From positions 83,237 through 147,236 of the forward strand of contig JBFWJS010000005.1 of assembly GCA_050253075.1 (NCBI GenBank): 64,000 nucleotides of DNA, read 5' to 3'. This stretch comes from Deferribacterales bacterium. GTDB lineage: Bacteria > Chrysiogenota > Deferribacteres > Deferribacterales > Geovibrionaceae. The translations under genes and the position numbers were made by a program. Shown piece after piece: positions 29,587 to 45,620 of the stretch. The number at the start of each line of letters is the position of its first letter. Position 1 is the first letter of the stretch. The notes beneath the pieces are model-generated. The model saw only the letters and a program-made list of their open reading frames with translations, did not search any database and had not been told where the DNA came from.

Positions 29587-30195
29587 ATGTTTCCATCCGG
29601 TGATATTATGAGATATATAGACACACAAGCCGGATTTCCCGGCAGGATTAATAGTCTGAGAGAAGTACATAATTTTTCTGAATTCGTAGAGTATGCGCTC
29701 CCATACGGGATAGCTAAAGTATACATGACAGCAAACAGGCGCTGGATGTTCCTTGAGCGTGACCGCAGGAAAAGGGCACTTGCTCTGCTCATAAACAGAG
29801 TCATCAGGCGCTTCGCATTTAACATATGGGATGTCCGAACCTCGGGAGGAGGCTTCATGGAGGACTTCCATACTATGCCGGTGATAGGTATAATAACCAT
29901 ACTAGCGACAGAATACGCCAGACAAGAACACCTTATAAACACCTATGGCAACCTGAATATGGCGACATTCAAACTATGCGGTGAAGGTTTAATACCAAAC
30001 GAACTGAAAGACAGGATAAACAGACTGAACGAGCTGAAGCTCCGGAAAGAAAGAGGCGATGTTGCGGCACCACCGAGCCAAGATAACAAACCGCTGCTTT
30101 ACGAAGAAGCCGTAAGCGCCCTTTACGAACTGGAGGAATGTCTGATCAGTGCCCACCGGAGACATATCAATCATTCCTTACAGGCGAGCGCCTGA
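29587..30195 (+). CDS. Hypothetical protein
   Basis: 202-aa ORF fills the gap between divergent and convergent neighbours; codon style like the host; no recognised domain. Confidence 0.65.
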   Translation: MFPSGDIMRYIDTQAGFPGRINSLREVHNFSEFVEYALPYGIAKVYMTANRRWMFLERDRRKRALALLINRVIRRFAFNIWDVRTSGGGFMEDFHTMPVIGIITILATEYARQEHLINTYGNLNMATFKLCGEGLIPNELKDRINRLNELKLRKERGDVAAPPSQDNKPLLYEEAVSALYELEECLISAHRRHINHSLQASA

Positions 30196-33748: not shown

Positions 33749-34495
33749 GTGCAAAAAATGATAAACATCTATTCATCCGGCAGCATTTCAGGCGCAGTGC
33801 GAGATGCCGTAAACAGCCATCTGTTCAACGAAGGCGGCATCGGTATAAACTGCACCGTAGGCCCTGCGGGGCTCCTCCGCAGACGTATCGAAGAGGGAGA
33901 GATGTTCGACATATTCATCTCCGCCGACCTGCACAACGCCAAAGAGCTCCAGATAAAAGGGATAACAAACGCTCCGATACATCTGGTGAAAAACAAGATG
34001 TCCGTATTCATAAAAAAGAGCCTCCACGCCGCAAAAGACACGGTGCTCGACATTCTGGCGAAGGACGGCATAAGACTGGGCATATCCACCCCGCTGTCTG
34101 ACCCTGCGGGAGATTATGCCATGGATGTGTTTTATAATATCGAGAATAATATATCGCAGGAATTAGGAAAACTGCTGAAGAAAAAGGCTATCCCCGTTGT
34201 CGGCAATGCTCTGCTACCCGCCATGCAGAACCACGGCAAAAGCCCCGTAGTGAGACTGTTCAGAGAAGGTCATATCGATGCATTCATAGGATACTCGAGC
34301 AGCTTCCTGAAGCTGGCGGAATGTCATGATTATGTCGAAGAGATAGACCTGCCCGAGCAGGCCGCCGTACAGGCGGATTATTACGCCGCACTCTTCATCG
34401 GAGCATCAGACGGCGCAGATAAGATAATCTGTACACTGCTGAAACAAAAGGACATATTCCTGAAACACGGCTTTATTCCGCTGGAGATATCTTAA
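33749..34495 (+). CDS. ModA-like molybdate/tungstate-binding domain protein without signal peptide
   Basis: YSSGS, GPAGLLRRRIEEGE.FDIFISAD, STP.SDPAGDYA; GTG start after AGGAGG. Confidence 0.75.
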   Translation: MQKMINIYSSGSISGAVRDAVNSHLFNEGGIGINCTVGPAGLLRRRIEEGEMFDIFISADLHNAKELQIKGITNAPIHLVKNKMSVFIKKSLHAAKDTVLDILAKDGIRLGISTPLSDPAGDYAMDVFYNIENNISQELGKLLKKKAIPVVGNALLPAMQNHGKSPVVRLFREGHIDAFIGYSSSFLKLAECHDYVEEIDLPEQAAVQADYYAALFIGASDGADKIICTLLKQKDIFLKHGFIPLEIS

Positions 34496-36155
34496 AGGTC
34501 TCCACCCTGTTTCGTCCGTTATTTTTTGCGCTGTAGAGAGCTTTGTCCGCAGAGACCATTAGTGATTCGAGGGAGTCATAACGCTCATATGCGCAGACTA
34601 TGCCTATGCTTATGGTACAGCTTATAAGTTCGCCTTCGGCATCCATCTTTGCACTCTCCACCAGCTCCCTTATGCGCTCCGCTACGAGGCGTGCTTCGTC
34701 AGGGTCTGTCTCTACGAGCACAGCCGCAAACTCCTCTCCGCCCAGACGACCAAAAAGGTCATTGTCTCTCAGTGCATTAGCACATATATCCGCAATATTC
34801 TGCAACACCAAATCGCCTATGTGGTGTCCGTATGTGTCGTTTACAGATTTGAAATGGTCGATATCCATCATCAGCAGACAGGCGTTGTGCTTATAGCGGA
34901 TGCTTCGCTGAAGCTCTTTTTCGCCCAGTTCCATAAAGTGACGCCTGTTGCTGACACCTGTCAGCTCGTCTATCATGGCTATCTTCCGCAGTTTTTCCTC
35001 TCTGTTGGAGACCTCGTTATCGTAATAGACAAAAACCTTCGCCATGTCGGTTATCTCGTCATTACCGGAGGTGTCTATATCTACATCGTCACCAGCCAGC
35101 CTGCCGAGTATAGCTTTGTTCAGCCTCATCAGCCTCTGAACCAGATTCTTTCTGAAATAGACGACCACAAAGCCAGACGTCATAAAAGCACCGATGGAAA
35201 CAACTGCGAATATCAGAGTCATCTGACCTATCCTTTCAGACAGCAGCCTCGAATTATCGGCGGTATAGTTGATCAGGGTATTAAAGCCTGAAGTGTTTCT
35301 GTTTTTGAAGTCTTCGACCATATTACGGGTGAAATTGCCCCGTCCGTATTTCTGCAGGCTGACCTTTATCGCTTCCTCTATTTTATCCACCAGCCCGTCA
35401 TCGGAAATGACAAAATCAGAGAGCTGTTCTTCCACAGCCTTCATTTTTAAGCGCAGGTCTGCGGGCATATCGCCGGATATCTTTTCAAGATTTGCGAAGT
35501 CTCTGCTGAGGCTGTTGCGCAGTATCTTTATCTTATACATGGCGTCGATGGTGCCCGCCTGATTAGCCTTGTTTATGATGGCGACCATATGCCCAGTCCA
35601 TGTGGAAAGTCCGGAGTATGTCTTCTGGTCTGAGATGGTCACACGTGTGTCCTGCTCGAATTTTATGATCTCTTCGGAAAAGTCGAACAGCCTGCTCATC
35701 AGTTCCTGTATTCCTGACGAGACCGCCACGTTCTCTGTTACCATATCGTTCAGCTCTTCCAGAGTGCTGTTTATGACCTCTATCTCATTCGACAGAGTTT
35801 CATTCAGCTCAAAGTCCGAGCCGACTATCCTGCCTATCTCCTCCATGCTCTGCTCGATATTGCCGTACGCCAGCCTCTGTACAGGGCTGGACTCCGCAGA
35901 TATGAGCCTCTCTGTCTCACTCAGCACATGGCTGATGAGGTTGTTCAGCTTCGCCCTGCGTGTGATGTCGGGGAGGCCCTTATTCGAAATATCTTTCATA
36001 GCAGAATGAAAGCTGTGAAAACCGATAAGCGCAATGCCGGACACGGCGACAAGCGCTATGACTATCGCAATGAGCCCGCCGGTGATCTTCTTGGCTATAC
36101 TCTGCTTTTTACCGTTTAAAATTTTTAAAATCTCTCTACTCCAAAAAAATAACAA
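34473..36155 (-). CDS. Membrane diguanylate cyclase (large helical periplasmic domain-HAMP-GGDEF)
   Basis: Two TM helices, DELTG, DIDHFK, RxxD I-site (RDND), GGEEF; start codon uncertain. Confidence 0.9.
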   Translation of the reverse strand: MLFFWSREILKILNGKKQSIAKKITGGLIAIVIALVAVSGIALIGFHSFHSAMKDISNKGLPDITRRAKLNNLISHVLSETERLISAESSPVQRLAYGNIEQSMEEIGRIVGSDFELNETLSNEIEVINSTLEELNDMVTENVAVSSGIQELMSRLFDFSEEIIKFEQDTRVTISDQKTYSGLSTWTGHMVAIINKANQAGTIDAMYKIKILRNSLSRDFANLEKISGDMPADLRLKMKAVEEQLSDFVISDDGLVDKIEEAIKVSLQKYGRGNFTRNMVEDFKNRNTSGFNTLINYTADNSRLLSERIGQMTLIFAVVSIGAFMTSGFVVVYFRKNLVQRLMRLNKAILGRLAGDDVDIDTSGNDEITDMAKVFVYYDNEVSNREEKLRKIAMIDELTGVSNRRHFMELGEKELQRSIRYKHNACLLMMDIDHFKSVNDTYGHHIGDLVLQNIADICANALRDNDLFGRLGGEEFAAVLVETDPDEARLVAERIRELVESAKMDAEGELISCTISIGIVCAYERYDSLESLMVSADKALYSAKNNGRNRVETFKISPAE

Positions 36156-36156
36156 A

Positions 36157-37626
36157 TCATGGGCATTTGGTTAATATTCTGCCCTCTATCTTCGGACTAA
36201 CCACATTCTTATTCTGGACATATTCCCTCACTATCTCCCAAATAAGCATGGACGCCTTTTTCCCCTGAACCACTCTAGCATCCTTCAGCATGGAGAAGCC
36301 GTCCCCTCCGTTCGCCATGAAATCTGCCGTGGCAGCTCTGTAAATCTTATCGTCTTTCAGCGGTTTGCCGTTTATCGTTATGGATACGACCCTGCTGCCG
36401 ACGGGTTTTTCAGGACAATAAGCCATCTTCACACCCGAAAAATGCAGGAATCTACCCTTTACGTCATCCATAGTACTGAGACCGTTTTCCACAGCGTCTC
36501 TGAGCTGTCTGCCTGTGATATCCAGCAGTATGCCCGAATTCCTGAAAGGCAGCTCCGACTGTATGTCTCCCCGTGTCAGCAGAGTGCCCGCAGAGTAAAG
36601 CCTGTTGCCCCTTATCCCGCCTGAATTCATAAAGGCGATGTCGCTGTCGTAGTAATCACGCAGGGCATCCGCCGTCAGGTTGCCGAATGCGTTTTCGTAA
36701 AGCCTCACTATCCTCTTAACGGTGGTCATCTCTGTGGTCGTCCTGCCTATCACGGCGGACATAACGTCTGAGAGCTTCCCGTTGTAATAATCTACTTTTT
36801 TACTAACCTCAGGATCAGGCGGAAATTCTAAAAGGTGCCTGAAAACAGGGCTAACAGATACACCGTCGGCGCTTTTTTTAATATCTGCGACGATTACATT
36901 GCCGTCCACCGTCCCCTGCTTCACAAGGAAGCTGCCGTTCACGTCTATCACCTGATCTTCCTGTGATTTCACTATGAACATGATGTCGACACTCTTGCTG
37001 TATATCATCTGCATAATGTCTTCGTTCACCATACCCGCAACCATAAGCACAACATCGGCACCGTTCTTTTTCAGCTTTCGTGCCAGTTCGTCCATGTGGC
37101 TGATGTCCGGGTCTACTATTATTCTGTCTGGCATATAGTCCATATTTACCGACGGATCGAGGTATGAAATGACGCATACATTTATATCATTTATCTTATT
37201 ACAGTAGTTATTTAGAACACCTTCGAGGTTTTTCCCCGTGAGAGGGTCAGTTATATTCGAAGAGACAAAGGGGAAGCCAGCCTCTTTTATCCTGAGCACC
37301 AGCTCGTCTTCTTTATAGGCGAGTTCACGCTCATTTACGGTGACGGCGTCAGGCTCCAAACTGTTAAGGATATCTATCATATGAGAACCGTGGTCAAAAG
37401 CAGACATCGCACTGGGCGCAAGGAAATCTCCGCCGTGAAGGAAAAATACTGAGCCCTCACTGCGTGACTGTCTGAGCAGACCGCCCAGCTCCACAAGCCC
37501 GCCGACACCCTTATCAGACATAGATATATCAGGTGTACGAGAGATGTAGATGAGCTTTAAACTACTTTCTGCATATGCTGTAAAACTTTGTATTAAAAGA
37601 AATAAAACTAATAACGACCTAAGCAT
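36157..37626 (-). CDS. Secreted 5'-nucleotidase/UDP-sugar hydrolase homologue with degenerate metal site
   Basis: Signal peptide (AYA); GGD retained; C-terminal domain motifs NSGGIRG, LPFRN, GGDGF; start re-called after GGAGG. Confidence 0.85.
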   Translation of the reverse strand: MLRSLLVLFLLIQSFTAYAESSLKLIYISRTPDISMSDKGVGGLVELGGLLRQSRSEGSVFFLHGGDFLAPSAMSAFDHGSHMIDILNSLEPDAVTVNERELAYKEDELVLRIKEAGFPFVSSNITDPLTGKNLEGVLNNYCNKINDINVCVISYLDPSVNMDYMPDRIIVDPDISHMDELARKLKKNGADVVLMVAGMVNEDIMQMIYSKSVDIMFIVKSQEDQVIDVNGSFLVKQGTVDGNVIVADIKKSADGVSVSPVFRHLLEFPPDPEVSKKVDYYNGKLSDVMSAVIGRTTTEMTTVKRIVRLYENAFGNLTADALRDYYDSDIAFMNSGGIRGNRLYSAGTLLTRGDIQSELPFRNSGILLDITGRQLRDAVENGLSTMDDVKGRFLHFSGVKMAYCPEKPVGSRVVSITINGKPLKDDKIYRAATADFMANGGDGFSMLKDARVVQGKKASMLIWEIVREYVQNKNVVSPKIEGRILTKCP

Positions 37627-37765: not shown

Positions 37766-37799
37766 AAAAAAAAGGCATGCACCCTTTCGAATGCATGCC
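37766..37799 (-). terminator. Intrinsic terminator of the ELWxxDGT gene
   Basis: GGCATGCA/TGCATGCC stem followed by a T8 tract on the minus strand. Confidence 0.75.
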
Positions 37800-37811: not shown

Positions 37812-40800
37812 TTACGAACTTAACCCTACCGGTCCTTCCATAACTTTTATCATGGAGCTGCCGAGTATTCTCACCAGGAATATCTCTCCCGTGGTGTCGT
37901 TCTGGAACCACTTAAGAGAATAGCCTGTTTCGGGCACTACACCTGTGTAGTAGATGCTGCTCAGCATGCTGAAACCATCCAGCCCTGCTGCTTCCACATC
38001 CAGCTCTTTCACTGTGCCTAAGGAGTTTCTTATGAGATGCGTAACAATGCCGTTCTCCCCATAGATACCCACATAGAAAATATCATCCACCAAAAGCGTA
38101 GGATATATCAGAGGGATAGGAACAGGAGGTATACTGTCAGGCTTTGCCACTGTATGCACCAGAACCGAGCCGTCCACAGTGCCGTCTGTCTTCCAGAGGT
38201 ATTCGCTGCTGAGGTCTTCTGCTTTAAAAGTGTAGTAGTAATCATCTTCTACCGTAAGCAGTCCTGTAGCATACTCAGTAGAGAGGAAGTCTCTCAGTTT
38301 TACGGAGCTCATGGTTGTAAGGTCTGTCGCCCATAAGGTCGATGTGCCGTCATCCATTGCTACCAGAGTAAAGAGCTTGCCCCCTGCGTACTGAAATGAA
38401 TTTGATGAACTATCATTCAGAACATCATTAAGCTGTATTTCGCCAGCGAGTGATGTTCCGTCCTGTGTACCGTCTGTGAGATAAACATAAAGCAGGGTTT
38501 CGTCTGCTGAGTTCATAGCTACGATAGCCAGCTCATCATCCACGGCTATTGCTTTGATTATATCGAGGTCCCCGTCGTAATGGTTCCCGTCGATGTCCTC
38601 AAGCCTTGTCACATTACCCTGCACGTCCATTATAAAGTAAATATCATCGAATGTATCTGTGGTCTCACCGATGAATAATATCTTGTCGCCGAATACGGTC
38701 AGGACTTCGATATCGCCGTATATATCACCGAAAAGCTCTGTGCCTGCCTGTGTGCCGTCACTCCTTACGAACTGACAATCGCCTGTACACGTAACAGCGA
38801 CACCGTATCCGCCGACAGAATAGATTGTGTTGATGGATCCGATCGTGTCTTCGGCAGCAAGAGTACCTGCTTCTGTGCCGTCAGATGTCCATAATTTATA
38901 ATCGACAGACTTCAGCACATATCCGTGCTCCGCTTTTACAGATGCGATATACATATTGAGACCGTTTGAAGGTGTGGTATTTGCATCTTTCAGTATGGCT
39001 GTTCCTGCTGCCGTACCGTCTGACATCCACGGTTCAAACTTGCCTTCGAACATTCCTGAGAAGTATACCTTCCCGTTTAGCTCAACGTGGGCATTGTAGT
39101 CCCTGCTCGGGATATCGATGTCTCCTATTGATTTGATAAGTGTCGTTCCCGCATCTGTTCCGTCTGTAGACCAGAATCCGTATTCGTCATCAACATCGTA
39201 ACCATAAAAAAGCAGTTCATCCCCAAGCTGATAAAACGATTTAATACCGTCTACTTTGCTTGTTACTGCGGAGATGGTACCCGCTGTGATATCTGCTTTA
39301 TAGAGGACATTATAATAAAGGAAGTAAACATCTTCATTCATCACAAATGCTCTGCCGTAAGTATATGAGTCGGAAACGCTGAGAACGTTAGCGAAAGGAT
39401 CTCCTGTGCCGTCTGAATAATATATTCTGGCATTATAGCTGTCACTTGTGTCACGCATAAGAAGGAATATGCTATCTTCCCCTGCTACCATTGATTTATC
39501 TGTATTATAAATAAAGCTGTTACGAATGGTATTATTCGCAGGGTATGCATATGAAGCCGGTGCAACCAGCTGTGCCTCATTTGTCAATGCTTCTGCGGCA
39601 TCAGCAGGTGTCAGCCTATAAATAGTAGTGCTGGTCTGTACATACAGGTCATCCTTGAAAGTAAGAAGAGCACTATTCGCCTCTATATCCATAGCATCAA
39701 CTGTCTTTGTCCCGTCTGAGACATAGAGCTTATCAGGCGTTTCAAACCAGATATATTCACCGGCAACTTGTATAATAGCTCTATCAGTCTGCGGGATAAG
39801 ATTCCCGTTAACATCCTGTACAGCTACTGTGCCCGCTTCGGTTCCGTCTGTAACTCCGACGACGTATACCCCCATGGATTCCATAGCTGCAGAGAAATAC
39901 GATTTACCCTTAAAAGATGTAAAGCTGTAAGGAAAGCTGCCGTTAGGTCCGGGTATTATATCCTTCAGCATGACAGTACCTGCTTCGGTTCCGTCTGAGA
40001 TCCATAGCTCACTTCCATGTACAGAGTCATTCACTCTGAAGATCAGAGTGCTGTCGTCAAAAGCTGCTAAAGAATACATCTCATTCGTGAACTCTTTAAC
40101 CAGAACCGTACCTGCTTCTGTCCCGTCAGATTTCCATAAAGATCCGCCGTTATCGCTTACAGTTGTGAAATAAAAATCTGAGCCGACCATAACAAAATTT
40201 TCCGGAAATGCTCTTTCAGTTGCGCTGTTTAAATCTTTTACAAATTTGAGTTCTTTGCCGTCCTCTGTCATCCACAGCTCTAATCCTCGCTCTGCATCAT
40301 AGCCTGCGAAGATGCGCTCTGTGGACTGGACAGTGCCGTCAGGGTCTATGGCGAGCTCGTTGAAAGTATCTTCCATGTGCTCCATAGCTTCCTCACGCTC
40401 GACAAATCTGAGCCCTTGAGGCAGGGTATCCCTGAGCCACTGCTCAAAGCCTGATGAAGAAAAGTCTGCATTTATAAGAGCAGCCAGAGCATCTTCGTCG
40501 GGAGTGATACCGTCTGAAGGGTCTCCGTTGCTGTCGATACTCTGAAGGAACTGAGCAAGGTTCAGAGCACGTTCCTCATCACCGGGAAATAGTGAATGAG
40601 GCGTGATATACGGGCCTGCCGGAGCAGAGCCGAGGACGATATCACCAGCCTTGAATGTTATAGTATCCCCTTCATTGTATTCGAACCCGCCGTTCTCATC
40701 TGTTGTTCCTGTTATTCCTGTCGGAGTGGTCTCATAAGAGAGGTTTACGACTGGGCTGTCGACGAAAACCCCTGTTTCAGAACCTGTGACAGGGTCTGGA

Positions 40801-40952
40801 TCTGGGTCCGGATCTGGGTCTGTTGAACCACCACCCGGGTCTGGTGTCGGCGCTACTGTTGTGGAACTTCCGCCCGAATTCCCAAGGAAGTTACAGCCGC
40901 CGGCTAAAAGGACCAGCGCTAAGATAACCGACAATGCGATTACACGTTTCAT
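37812..40952 (-). CDS. Large acidic lipoprotein with ELWxxDGT repeats
   Basis: Lipobox-like LAGGC, PD linker, about 12 (L)W.SDGT.AGT repeats. Confidence 0.88.
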   Translation of the reverse strand: MKRVIALSVILALVLLAGGCNFLGNSGGSSTTVAPTPDPGGGSTDPDPDPDPDPVTGSETGVFVDSPVVNLSYETTPTGITGTTDENGGFEYNEGDTITFKAGDIVLGSAPAGPYITPHSLFPGDEERALNLAQFLQSIDSNGDPSDGITPDEDALAALINADFSSSGFEQWLRDTLPQGLRFVEREEAMEHMEDTFNELAIDPDGTVQSTERIFAGYDAERGLELWMTEDGKELKFVKDLNSATERAFPENFVMVGSDFYFTTVSDNGGSLWKSDGTEAGTVLVKEFTNEMYSLAAFDDSTLIFRVNDSVHGSELWISDGTEAGTVMLKDIIPGPNGSFPYSFTSFKGKSYFSAAMESMGVYVVGVTDGTEAGTVAVQDVNGNLIPQTDRAIIQVAGEYIWFETPDKLYVSDGTKTVDAMDIEANSALLTFKDDLYVQTSTTIYRLTPADAAEALTNEAQLVAPASYAYPANNTIRNSFIYNTDKSMVAGEDSIFLLMRDTSDSYNARIYYSDGTGDPFANVLSVSDSYTYGRAFVMNEDVYFLYYNVLYKADITAGTISAVTSKVDGIKSFYQLGDELLFYGYDVDDEYGFWSTDGTDAGTTLIKSIGDIDIPSRDYNAHVELNGKVYFSGMFEGKFEPWMSDGTAAGTAILKDANTTPSNGLNMYIASVKAEHGYVLKSVDYKLWTSDGTEAGTLAAEDTIGSINTIYSVGGYGVAVTCTGDCQFVRSDGTQAGTELFGDIYGDIEVLTVFGDKILFIGETTDTFDDIYFIMDVQGNVTRLEDIDGNHYDGDLDIIKAIAVDDELAIVAMNSADETLLYVYLTDGTQDGTSLAGEIQLNDVLNDSSSNSFQYAGGKLFTLVAMDDGTSTLWATDLTTMSSVKLRDFLSTEYATGLLTVEDDYYYTFKAEDLSSEYLWKTDGTVDGSVLVHTVAKPDSIPPVPIPLIYPTLLVDDIFYVGIYGENGIVTHLIRNSLGTVKELDVEAAGLDGFSMLSSIYYTGVVPETGYSLKWFQNDTTGEIFLVRILGSSMIKVMEGPVGLSS

Positions 40953-43620: not shown

Positions 43621-45384
43621 TTAGTAAGTAAATTGTTTCTGAACACCGAATACTCTTCCGTATACGTCGAATACTTCGAAGTTTGCGTTGTATGAGTGAC
43701 CGGATGTAAATGTGGTTGCGTTAGCCACGATGCTTGTTGTATCGAATGGGATGCTTCCGCCGTCGTCATCGCCGTCGCTGCCGCCTTCGAAAACGTTATA
43801 GCCGCCTTCATTGTCATAAACATCAAGCTGCACTTCGGAAACGTTTGCATTATCTGTGTGAGTAAAAGCAAATGTTACAGTACCGTCTGTGTTTTGTGTA
43901 ACGGTGAGCGTCGGGATGAACTCATCCAGAACAGCCTCAGTAGGACAAGCAGGGAGAGTGAGCTCTATGCCGTCTGTTGTGCCGTCTGTGTAGTCCACAT
44001 GCAGATCGATGTCTCTGGCAGCGCATATGTCTGCAGAGTATGTTACGTCGTACTGCTGGTTGCCTGTGTAGTAATAAGGATATGTCTCACTTGTGTACAG
44101 GTGGTATTCGTTGCTGTCGTCGTTAGGGTTGATGAAAAGCTCTACAGTACTAGGAAAGAAGCCTGCATCGAGATATACGTTATCGATAGGGTAAAGGTCT
44201 GTCTCTGTGACATCCGCCCAAAATCTGCTCTCGATAGTGCCGTCGCCTGTGTCGTAGAAGCCCATGTTCACCCAGAACTCAGACTTTTTCTGGTTACCGA
44301 TGAGAGCCCACTTCTGTGTGGCTTCATCATATGTAACATACATAGGAGCTGCCTTGTATGATGCCTCTTTTGAGTCGTCATAGTTCTCTTCCTCAACCAC
44401 TTCGCCGTTGAGCTTAAGCTGTGTGTGTGAAGCGATGAATACTTTATAAGTAGTATCGTTCACTTTAACAGCTTTTGCATCTGAGCTGACGAGAGTCAAA
44501 GTGAGACCGGCATCTTGCATATCGGTTAATTCACTCTGAATGTTTGTAAGCCAGTGTTCTGCATCATATCCGTCTGTGAGGAAATCTGTGCTGAGGCTGG
44601 CTGCGAGTGTTGTAATGTCGCCTGTGGCATAAGCGTTGAATACGCCTTCGATGATCTCGGAAGCTGTTTCTGCATCATTAGATGAAGCAGGAACGACAAA
44701 TCCGCCTGTTGATATCTCTTCATAAATTTCAGAGCTTTCGAAAGCAGAAGCGAGAACAGTCGAAACACTCACACCGTTCTCAGCGTTTTGCCATGTGAGA
44801 GCATTCGTGTAGGACTGCCTGAGGCTTTCAAATGTACCGTCATTTTCAACAGACTCTCTGAATGTTGTCACGTCGATATCAAGTGTAGCATCAGAAAACC
44901 CTGCAAGAAGCTGAGCAGCACTGGCGCTGTTGTTGTTTGCCTCGAGAGCACCTACATAAGCCTGCAGGATATCTACGAAAAGTGTCGATTCAGGGTCTGT
45001 GGCACCTAAATCAACGCCGCCGTCTGTGGATGCAAGAGAGGAGAAGAAGTTCTTGAGAACAAGGTCTCCTGCGTGGGCTTCAACGTATCCCACAGCATCT
45101 TCGGAATAGTTTCTGACAACACAAGAGTATTCGCCGTTGCCGTCGTCAGTCATTTGATATGTTGTACCGTCTGCGAGAGTAAGAGTAACGCTGATGGCTG
45201 TTGCTCTTGATAAGCTGTCGTCAAAAAATCCTGACGGTGTACCTGTCAGAGACAGAGTTGTTTTGATCTCTACATCTGTAGAGTCGTCTGTTCCTGCATT
45301 ATCTGAGCTGCTTCCGCTGCCGCCACCACATGCGACAAGCGTGAGCATTACAGCTGTCATAAGCAGGTTTCTTAATAGTTTCAT
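43621..45384 (-). CDS. Large acidic surface lipoprotein, unknown function
   Basis: Lipobox LVAC then GGGSGSSS linker; D/T/S-rich; start re-called to MKLLRN after GGAGG. Confidence 0.8.
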   Translation of the reverse strand: MKLLRNLLMTAVMLTLVACGGGSGSSSDNAGTDDSTDVEIKTTLSLTGTPSGFFDDSLSRATAISVTLTLADGTTYQMTDDGNGEYSCVVRNYSEDAVGYVEAHAGDLVLKNFFSSLASTDGGVDLGATDPESTLFVDILQAYVGALEANNNSASAAQLLAGFSDATLDIDVTTFRESVENDGTFESLRQSYTNALTWQNAENGVSVSTVLASAFESSEIYEEISTGGFVVPASSNDAETASEIIEGVFNAYATGDITTLAASLSTDFLTDGYDAEHWLTNIQSELTDMQDAGLTLTLVSSDAKAVKVNDTTYKVFIASHTQLKLNGEVVEEENYDDSKEASYKAAPMYVTYDEATQKWALIGNQKKSEFWVNMGFYDTGDGTIESRFWADVTETDLYPIDNVYLDAGFFPSTVELFINPNDDSNEYHLYTSETYPYYYTGNQQYDVTYSADICAARDIDLHVDYTDGTTDGIELTLPACPTEAVLDEFIPTLTVTQNTDGTVTFAFTHTDNANVSEVQLDVYDNEGGYNVFEGGSDGDDDGGSIPFDTTSIVANATTFTSGHSYNANFEVFDVYGRVFGVQKQFTY

Positions 45385-45620
45385 ATAACCTCCAAGTATT
45401 AAGTTCTTTTCCCAGTGCGAATGGAAAGTAATAAAATATACCCCCGCAAAATATGCAAAACAAGTTATATTTACCAATTCATATATATGTCAAACCATTG
45501 TCAATTTTATTAATTTCCGTAAACTACTATTTCTTATGATGTTTTCATAATCACCAATGTCTGAAACTCTTATAAAAAATAAAATTATATTCATGCAAGG
45601 TTTGCATCGGCATTTTATAT

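Follow-up and report, generated by a model that had tools for sequence, protein, structure and literature searches.

The closest described precedents for the gene pair reported here, which lies in a 64,000-nt stretch of DNA from a Deferribacterales bacterium (the window, to which all positions refer), are the TMAO-sensing TorT/TorS and the PruR/DcpA systems. According to a review (PMC8050422), TorT is the ligand-binding partner and assembles with the TorS sensor domain into a 2:2 complex. PruR of Agrobacterium tumefaciens is described (PMC11194511) as a non-catalytic periplasmic binding protein derived from an enzyme fold and encoded directly upstream of a membrane enzyme of cyclic di-GMP (c-di-GMP) metabolism; the pair is conserved and its outputs are variable. 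The pair in the window consists of a secreted 5'-nucleotidase-like protein (P0001) and a membrane diguanylate cyclase (DGC, P0002); it would work like both systems but belongs to neither. As in TorT/TorS, a membrane sensor with a TorS-type bimodular helical periplasmic domain has an adjoining secreted partner; however, the partner is a pseudoenzyme of the 5'-nucleotidase fold and not a Peripla_BP_1 protein, the outputs are GGDEF domains or various kinases, the identity to TorS is about 12%, and no link to TMAO respiration was seen. As in PruR/DcpA, an apparently non-catalytic secreted protein is encoded directly upstream of the membrane signalling gene (42/42 loci); whereas PruR is reported as a small degenerate SUOX domain binding pterins, and the periplasmic domain of DcpA as ~140 aa long (PMC11194511), the present pair has a whole two-domain hinge enzyme fold and a 267-aa TorS-like sensor. 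The UshA/CD73-type 5'-nucleotidases (PF00149 plus PF02872) share the fold, the secretion signal and the C-domain pocket, but the dimetal ligands and the catalytic His-Asp are lost here, and the proteins form a separate clade coupled to sensors. NspS/MbaA, in which a binding protein controls a c-di-GMP enzyme (PMC8050422), and the dCache receptors of bacteria that sense purines (PMC11245519) are also comparable; whereas both have different folds and no nucleotidase-derived component. We propose, with a probability of about 0.68, that P0001 is an enzyme-derived, TorT-like accessory receptor, which probably closes on a 5'-ribonucleotide and switches its TorS-like partner, here a DGC. The P0001 clade probably serves this kind of partner as receptor for a nucleotide-like signal, because the hydrolysis site has been lost, the pocket has been kept, and a membrane signalling gene adjoins across many bacteria.

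Both genes are on the minus strand. The P0001 gene (36157..37626, 489 aa) runs from an ATG at 37626, with GGAGG 5 nt ahead of it, to a TGA at 36157, and its product has a signal-peptide-like N-terminus. The AF2 model of P0001 (pLDDT 91) and the Foldseek matches to whole 5'-nucleotidases (best E 2.3e-39; TM 0.81 to 2z1a and about 0.8 to closed forms) indicate that the two-domain metallophosphoesterase plus 5_nucleotid_C fold is present. The C-terminal domain (residues 292-449, 36280..36753) was matched by PF02872 (E 1.9e-38). No Pfam match to PF00149 was obtained at E<=0.1 for the metallophosphoesterase-fold N-domain (about residues 20-290, 36757..37569), and no NCBIfam model reached its cut-off for P0001. 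The dimetal ligands of E. coli UshA are taken here to be D41, H43, D84, N116, H217, H252 and Q254, and R379, R410 and D504 are presumed to act in its substrate pocket. In the alignment to UshA, D41 is replaced by R30, H43 by P32, N116 by E99, H217 by G198 and H252 by K220, and the catalytic His117 and Asp120 are replaced by R100 and A103. The only ligand matches are D84, kept as D67, and Q254, aligned with Q222 in a part (252/254) where the alignment is noisy. The pocket residues R379, R410, F429, F498 and D504 are retained as R308, R339, F361, F436 and D442; R375 corresponds to K304. The roles of H117, F429 and F498 in the UshA family were taken from PMC7922932. As judged from the alignment and the model, P0001 has the UshA two-domain fold with an intact nucleotide pocket, no metal site, and basic residues at an old metal ligand and at the catalytic His; it is very probably unable to hydrolyse nucleotides. 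A separate 5'-nucleotidase with a PF00149 match, in which GNHE and the later His motifs are kept, is encoded in the same genome (C1:229964-231838).

The same loss of the metal site was found in about half of the 96 proteins from a homologue search. A profile search over 1.84 billion representatives was also run, and its best 150 matches were used. The alignment (n=218) combined P0001 and UshA with the hits that are 440-640 aa long and with the N-terminal regions of two fusion proteins; three sequences without the key columns were removed. Among the remaining 215 sequences, 135 keep at most two of six site residues, 76 keep at least five, and 4 are intermediate. The metal-site-less sequences form, with three exceptions, one clade of 132 members with no intact enzyme inside (FastTree support 0.999). 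In this clade, 123 members have a hydrophobic N-terminus and 115 retain the full set of five pocket residues; the His117 position is Arg/Lys in 113, and position 116 or 117 is basic in 121. The N-domain dN/dS was 0.04-0.27 in 13 of 15 pairs, which are not independent of each other (the other two were saturated), and the C-domain values were similar; such ratios indicate purifying selection on the clade. A separate, partial loss of GNHE outside the main clade was observed in L063, L064, P0079, P0219 and P0235; L063 has no adjoining sensor.

The P0002 gene (34473..36155, 560 aa) runs from a TTG at 36155 to a TAA at 34473, leaving 1 nt after the P0001 stop. The protein has two hydrophobic segments (28-46 and 314-332) flanking a 267-aa helical domain (residues 47-313, 35217..36017), then a HAMP-like linker and a GGDEF domain (34506..34979) with a GGEEF active site and an RxxD inhibitory site (PF00990, E 4.7e-47, 160 bits vs a cut-off of 23.8; RDND-LFGRL-GGEEF). 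A profile of 28 members of the sensor family matched two structures of the TorS sensor, 3o1h (E 2.9e-06) and 3i9y, both at about 3e-06. The model of the sensor domain (pLDDT 90) ranked TorS first of 48161 chains (Z 18.1, rmsd 3.1, 231 aligned), and HHalign of the sensor against true TorS gave 97.6%. PF21689 (TorS_sensor_domain) has no match in P0002 and weak matches in 3 of the 28 members (best E 3.6e-04). The periplasmic domain is TorS-like by profile, predicted fold and HHalign. The first-pass annotation, made from the DNA alone, had described two intact reading frames 1 nt apart, a nucleotidase homologue which lost nearly all of its dimetal and catalytic motifs and kept its substrate-binding domain, and a membrane DGC with a periplasmic domain of ~270 aa resembling that of TorS. 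All of these hold. Its HAMP domain holds in part: the Pfam model matches 11 of the 28 family members (best E 5.3e-05) but not P0002, and therefore the segment is termed HAMP-like here.

A scan of GTDB gave 68 loci, of which 43 belong to the dead clade and 25 are others; one dead-clade locus (L022) ends at a contig edge, leaving 42 testable. A sensor profile, iterated from the sensor region of the window, was run over all six-frame ORFs. A TorS-like domain was found directly downstream on the same strand in 42/42 dead-clade loci vs 0/22 control loci with >1.1 kb downstream (0/25 including the short ones). Any kinase or GGDEF match was present in only two control loci, on the opposite strand and 1.2-3.5 kb distant. 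The paired loci come from hosts including Denitrovibrio, Desulfamplus, Spirochaetia, Vibrio, Marinomonas, Azospirillum and Kordiimonas. Within the window's phylum, both genes are confined to the same 2 of 68 genomes. Among 64 Marinomonas genomes, the dead-clade gene is present in 32 and the sensor adjoins in 32/32; five of these pairs fell below the first cut-off and were recovered from the locus DNA. In the reverse direction, the dead gene lies upstream of every one of the 27 Marinomonas sensors that reach E<=1e-25. By match score, a further, weaker nucleotidase candidate is present in 30 of the 32 carriers. In even samples of 301 and 251 genomes, the TorS-like domain follows the dead-clade gene in 16/16 and 2/2 cases, about 3 of these 18 loci repeating loci already counted. 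In the order of the Azospirillum genome G070, the dead gene is upstream in 30/30 loci listed, of about 205 matches. The reverse rule is not absolute. The lower-scoring TorS-like kinase L113 has no nucleotidase but, next to it, a divergent binding protein of family 3. Four more distant TorS-like genes were inspected, of which three adjoin a classical solute-binding protein; L114 is a true TorS/TorT-like pair, seen as a control.

The partner genes encode 15 GGDEF proteins, 26 kinase-type proteins (25 by BLAST and L045 by Pfam) and one truncated product; the first two output types are intermixed across the tree. The tree distances of the partners are correlated (r 0.89, 65 pairs, permutation maximum 0.17), which kinship alone could explain. 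These data describe a widespread two-gene system with one kind of sensor and varied outputs. The expectation of the first-pass annotation that metal-site-less homologues adjoin signalling genes was thus borne out, and the neutral decay or frameshifts that would speak against it were not seen among the orthologues. Its reading of P0001 as a pseudoenzyme repurposed as a receptor is supported; its restriction to c-di-GMP is not, because such pairs are more often linked to a histidine kinase. Azospirillum G070 has two paralogous pairs, L078 and L112, whose kinase outputs differ (a hybrid kinase and a PAS kinase), together with L113. In one Marinomonas/Maribrevibacterium subclade, a gene annotated as 'GAK system CofD-like protein' stands after the pair on the same strand (L029:9424-10602; TIGR04357, 487 bits vs a cut-off of 340); it was seen in L029, in 6/7 of L117-L123 and in 12/13 of L099-L111, where L100 and L111 repeat L123 and L122. 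The window's genome has no match to it. This neighbour is a possible clue to the ligand or the output.

Fusion proteins were also found. P0117 (1665 aa) is composed of a signal peptide, a dead-clade nucleotidase, three SBP_bac_3 domains, one transmembrane (TM) helix, PAS and a SpoIIE phosphatase; P0171 (1417 aa) has the same order with two SBP_bac_3 domains. The dead domain thereby stands next to ligand-binding modules in the outward-facing part of a membrane signalling protein. P0179 is a fragment-like protein with nucleotidase and SBP_bac_3 parts. No direct fusion of nucleotidase and sensor was found; a search of longer proteins with the sensor alignment gave only two TorS-annotated kinases among 8000 candidates, which is weak evidence.

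In the proposed mechanism, P0001 would dock on the periplasmic domain of its partner and control it, which is likely. The ligand is more plausibly than otherwise a nucleotide-type molecule, a 5'-phosphorylated ribonucleotide (AMP or a compound bearing a nucleoside monophosphate, NMP) being the best candidate from the pocket residues. Its base would be stacked between F361 and F436, its ribose would rest on D442, and its phosphate would be held by R308 and R339 plus R100 in place of the metal. In UshA-type enzymes, the substrate is reported to bind in the C-domain and then to be carried to the metal site by a rotation of ~96 degrees (PMC8475336, PMC10454023). In P0001 the ligand would stay uncleaved and trap this large open-to-closed rotation of the fold, which would be the signal. 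Either the closed or the open form might be shown to the TorS-like domain, as TorT does, and the signal would reach the cyclase by way of the helical bundle, TM2 and the HAMP-like linker. The output in the window's genome would be c-di-GMP, for which a rise or a fall are both possible. Hydrolysis of nucleotides could come from another gene, for example the separate 5'-nucleotidase. Binding without cleavage has a parallel in CpdB, for which the H117A variant is reported to lose nucleotide hydrolysis with little change in inhibition by adenosine (IC50 870 -> 2000 uM; PMC7922932).

Four other explanations were weighed. The most serious, though unlikely, is that P0001 is an accessory receptor for something other than a plain 5'-NMP. 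Candidates are unphosphorylated nucleosides or bases, nucleotide sugars, NAD-type or cyclic (di)nucleotides and other phosphorylated metabolites, and the ligand may vary by subgroup. The pockets of the UshA family are reported to take many substrates (PMC4905662), crystals of the solved relative nearest to P0001 in sequence (3ivd/3ive) contained uridine or cytidine, and the CofD-like gene follows the DGC directly in that one Marinomonas-group subclade. However, 133 of the 135 metal-site-less sequences retain R379 and 132 retain R410, and the old metal site has acquired Arg/Lys, which argues for an anionic phosphate over a bare nucleoside. An improbable alternative is a ligand-independent chaperone, scaffold or repressor of the sensor, with the pocket kept for structural reasons and the signal bound by the sensor itself. 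The sensor fold also resembles direct-binding receptors, since McpZ (Z 16.4) and McpS (Z 14.9) come next after TorS, along with PilJ, among bimodular helical sensors of Z 16.4-14.4; Arg94 of the sensor, invariant in 65/65 paired sensors, could bind a ligand. This view is opposed by the pocket residues, whose conservation in the dead clade matches that in the intact enzymes, and by the fused forms, which stack the dead domain with family-3 ligand-binding modules. It is more doubtful still that P0001 still catalyses a reaction, be it altered, metal-independent or very slow, which makes or removes the signal for the adjoining sensor. P0001 does keep the fold with its two domains and, at D67, the bridging Asp, and new residues are conserved in the clade (R100 81%, Y164 82%; both 0% in intact enzymes); but the bridging Asp is kept in only 59/135 metal-site-less sequences, so that no alternative set of metal ligands is conserved, and the His-Asp dyad is gone. 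A decaying pseudogene next to a DGC by chance, to which the patchy distribution in the phylum might point, is refuted by the 42/42 coupling, the 132-member clade of intact proteins over several phyla and a dN/dS far below 1, and in a second strain (run X3) only 2 of the 14 listed changes in the P0001 gene alter amino acids.

Several points weigh against the accessory nucleotide receptor proposed here. Because the counted genomes are related to one another, the counts do not represent independent events. Two of the 42 loci (L013 and L018) have a split sensor gene, and the downstream match of L175 is weak (23.6 bits, 298-aa ORF). Clustering of the neighbourhoods of the paired loci revealed no third gene conserved across the clade and no conserved metabolic neighbour hinting at a ligand. 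The position of UshA N431 varies (N72/D24/S20 of 135), which suggests that the ligand may differ between subgroups, and conservation of the pocket may reflect binding of something other than a nucleotide monophosphate. We infer the ligand, its binding, the signalling direction and the direct contact with the partner.

The layout of the locus suggests that the pair is its own two-gene unit, because a terminator-like hairpin with a T-run (37774..37799, minus strand, a consensus match only) lies upstream, 3' of an ELWxxDGT gene, and the downstream gene is convergent. No sigma-70 site turned up on this strand in a promoter scan. The TTG start of P0002 has no obvious Shine-Dalgarno sequence, and a TTG start is also found at the closest orthologous locus (L006). 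A T7 run just after the DGC start, which with one more base would give an in-frame ATG, was considered and dropped, as no such indel was listed in runs X1/X3 spanning the site and L006 also has TTG. The genes flanking the pair are not syntenic in three genus relatives. A contig of run X5 (depth 24.8) connects window positions 34496 and 37768 through 30 other letters and so lacks both genes; it may represent a relative without the cassette, its far side being backed by only 30 letters. The gene directly upstream of the pair (37812-40952, minus strand) encodes a lipoprotein-like protein of 1046 aa with ELWxxDGT repeats and a (DP)n linker, and is not syntenic in G025. The convergent gene (33749-34495, plus strand), with a 23-nt overlap with the DGC end, encodes a ModA-like molybdate-binding protein with no obvious signal peptide. 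Two further ORFs have no Pfam or NCBIfam match: a lipoprotein-like one of 618 aa (43621-45477, minus strand) and one of 202 aa (29587-30195, plus strand).

No published description of a pseudo-nucleotidase/TorS-like pair was found in the literature search, with subscription journals and supplements outside it, and the word 'nucleotidase' has no occurrence in the main text of the review PMC8050422. The novelty is probably the receptor fold for binding-protein-controlled sensing, with a probable nucleotide ligand. By a narrow balance, we favour a widespread and undescribed class of bacterial extracellular-nucleotide receptor, in which the metals may have been replaced by Arg/Lys and the catalytic rotation by a ligand-locked switch, which TorS-like sensors would read and couple to c-di-GMP or phosphorelay outputs, with PP2C outputs in the fused forms; such receptors would occur in Deferribacterota, Desulfobacterota, Spirochaetota and Alpha- and Gammaproteobacteria. 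The proposal is cheap to test, since the protein is soluble and cultured carriers exist in Marinomonas, Azospirillum, Vibrio and Kordiimonas. If true, a common mis-annotation would be corrected, as databases label the clade proteins as active metallophosphatases or 5'-nucleotidases, and an orphan family of TorS-like DGCs and kinases would be assigned its input. Extracellular charged nucleotides mark lysis, turnover of extracellular DNA and RNA, and phosphate availability. A periplasmic receptor for intact nucleotides that drives c-di-GMP or kinase signalling would extend the known binding-protein-controlled sensors by a class of signal as well as by a receptor fold.

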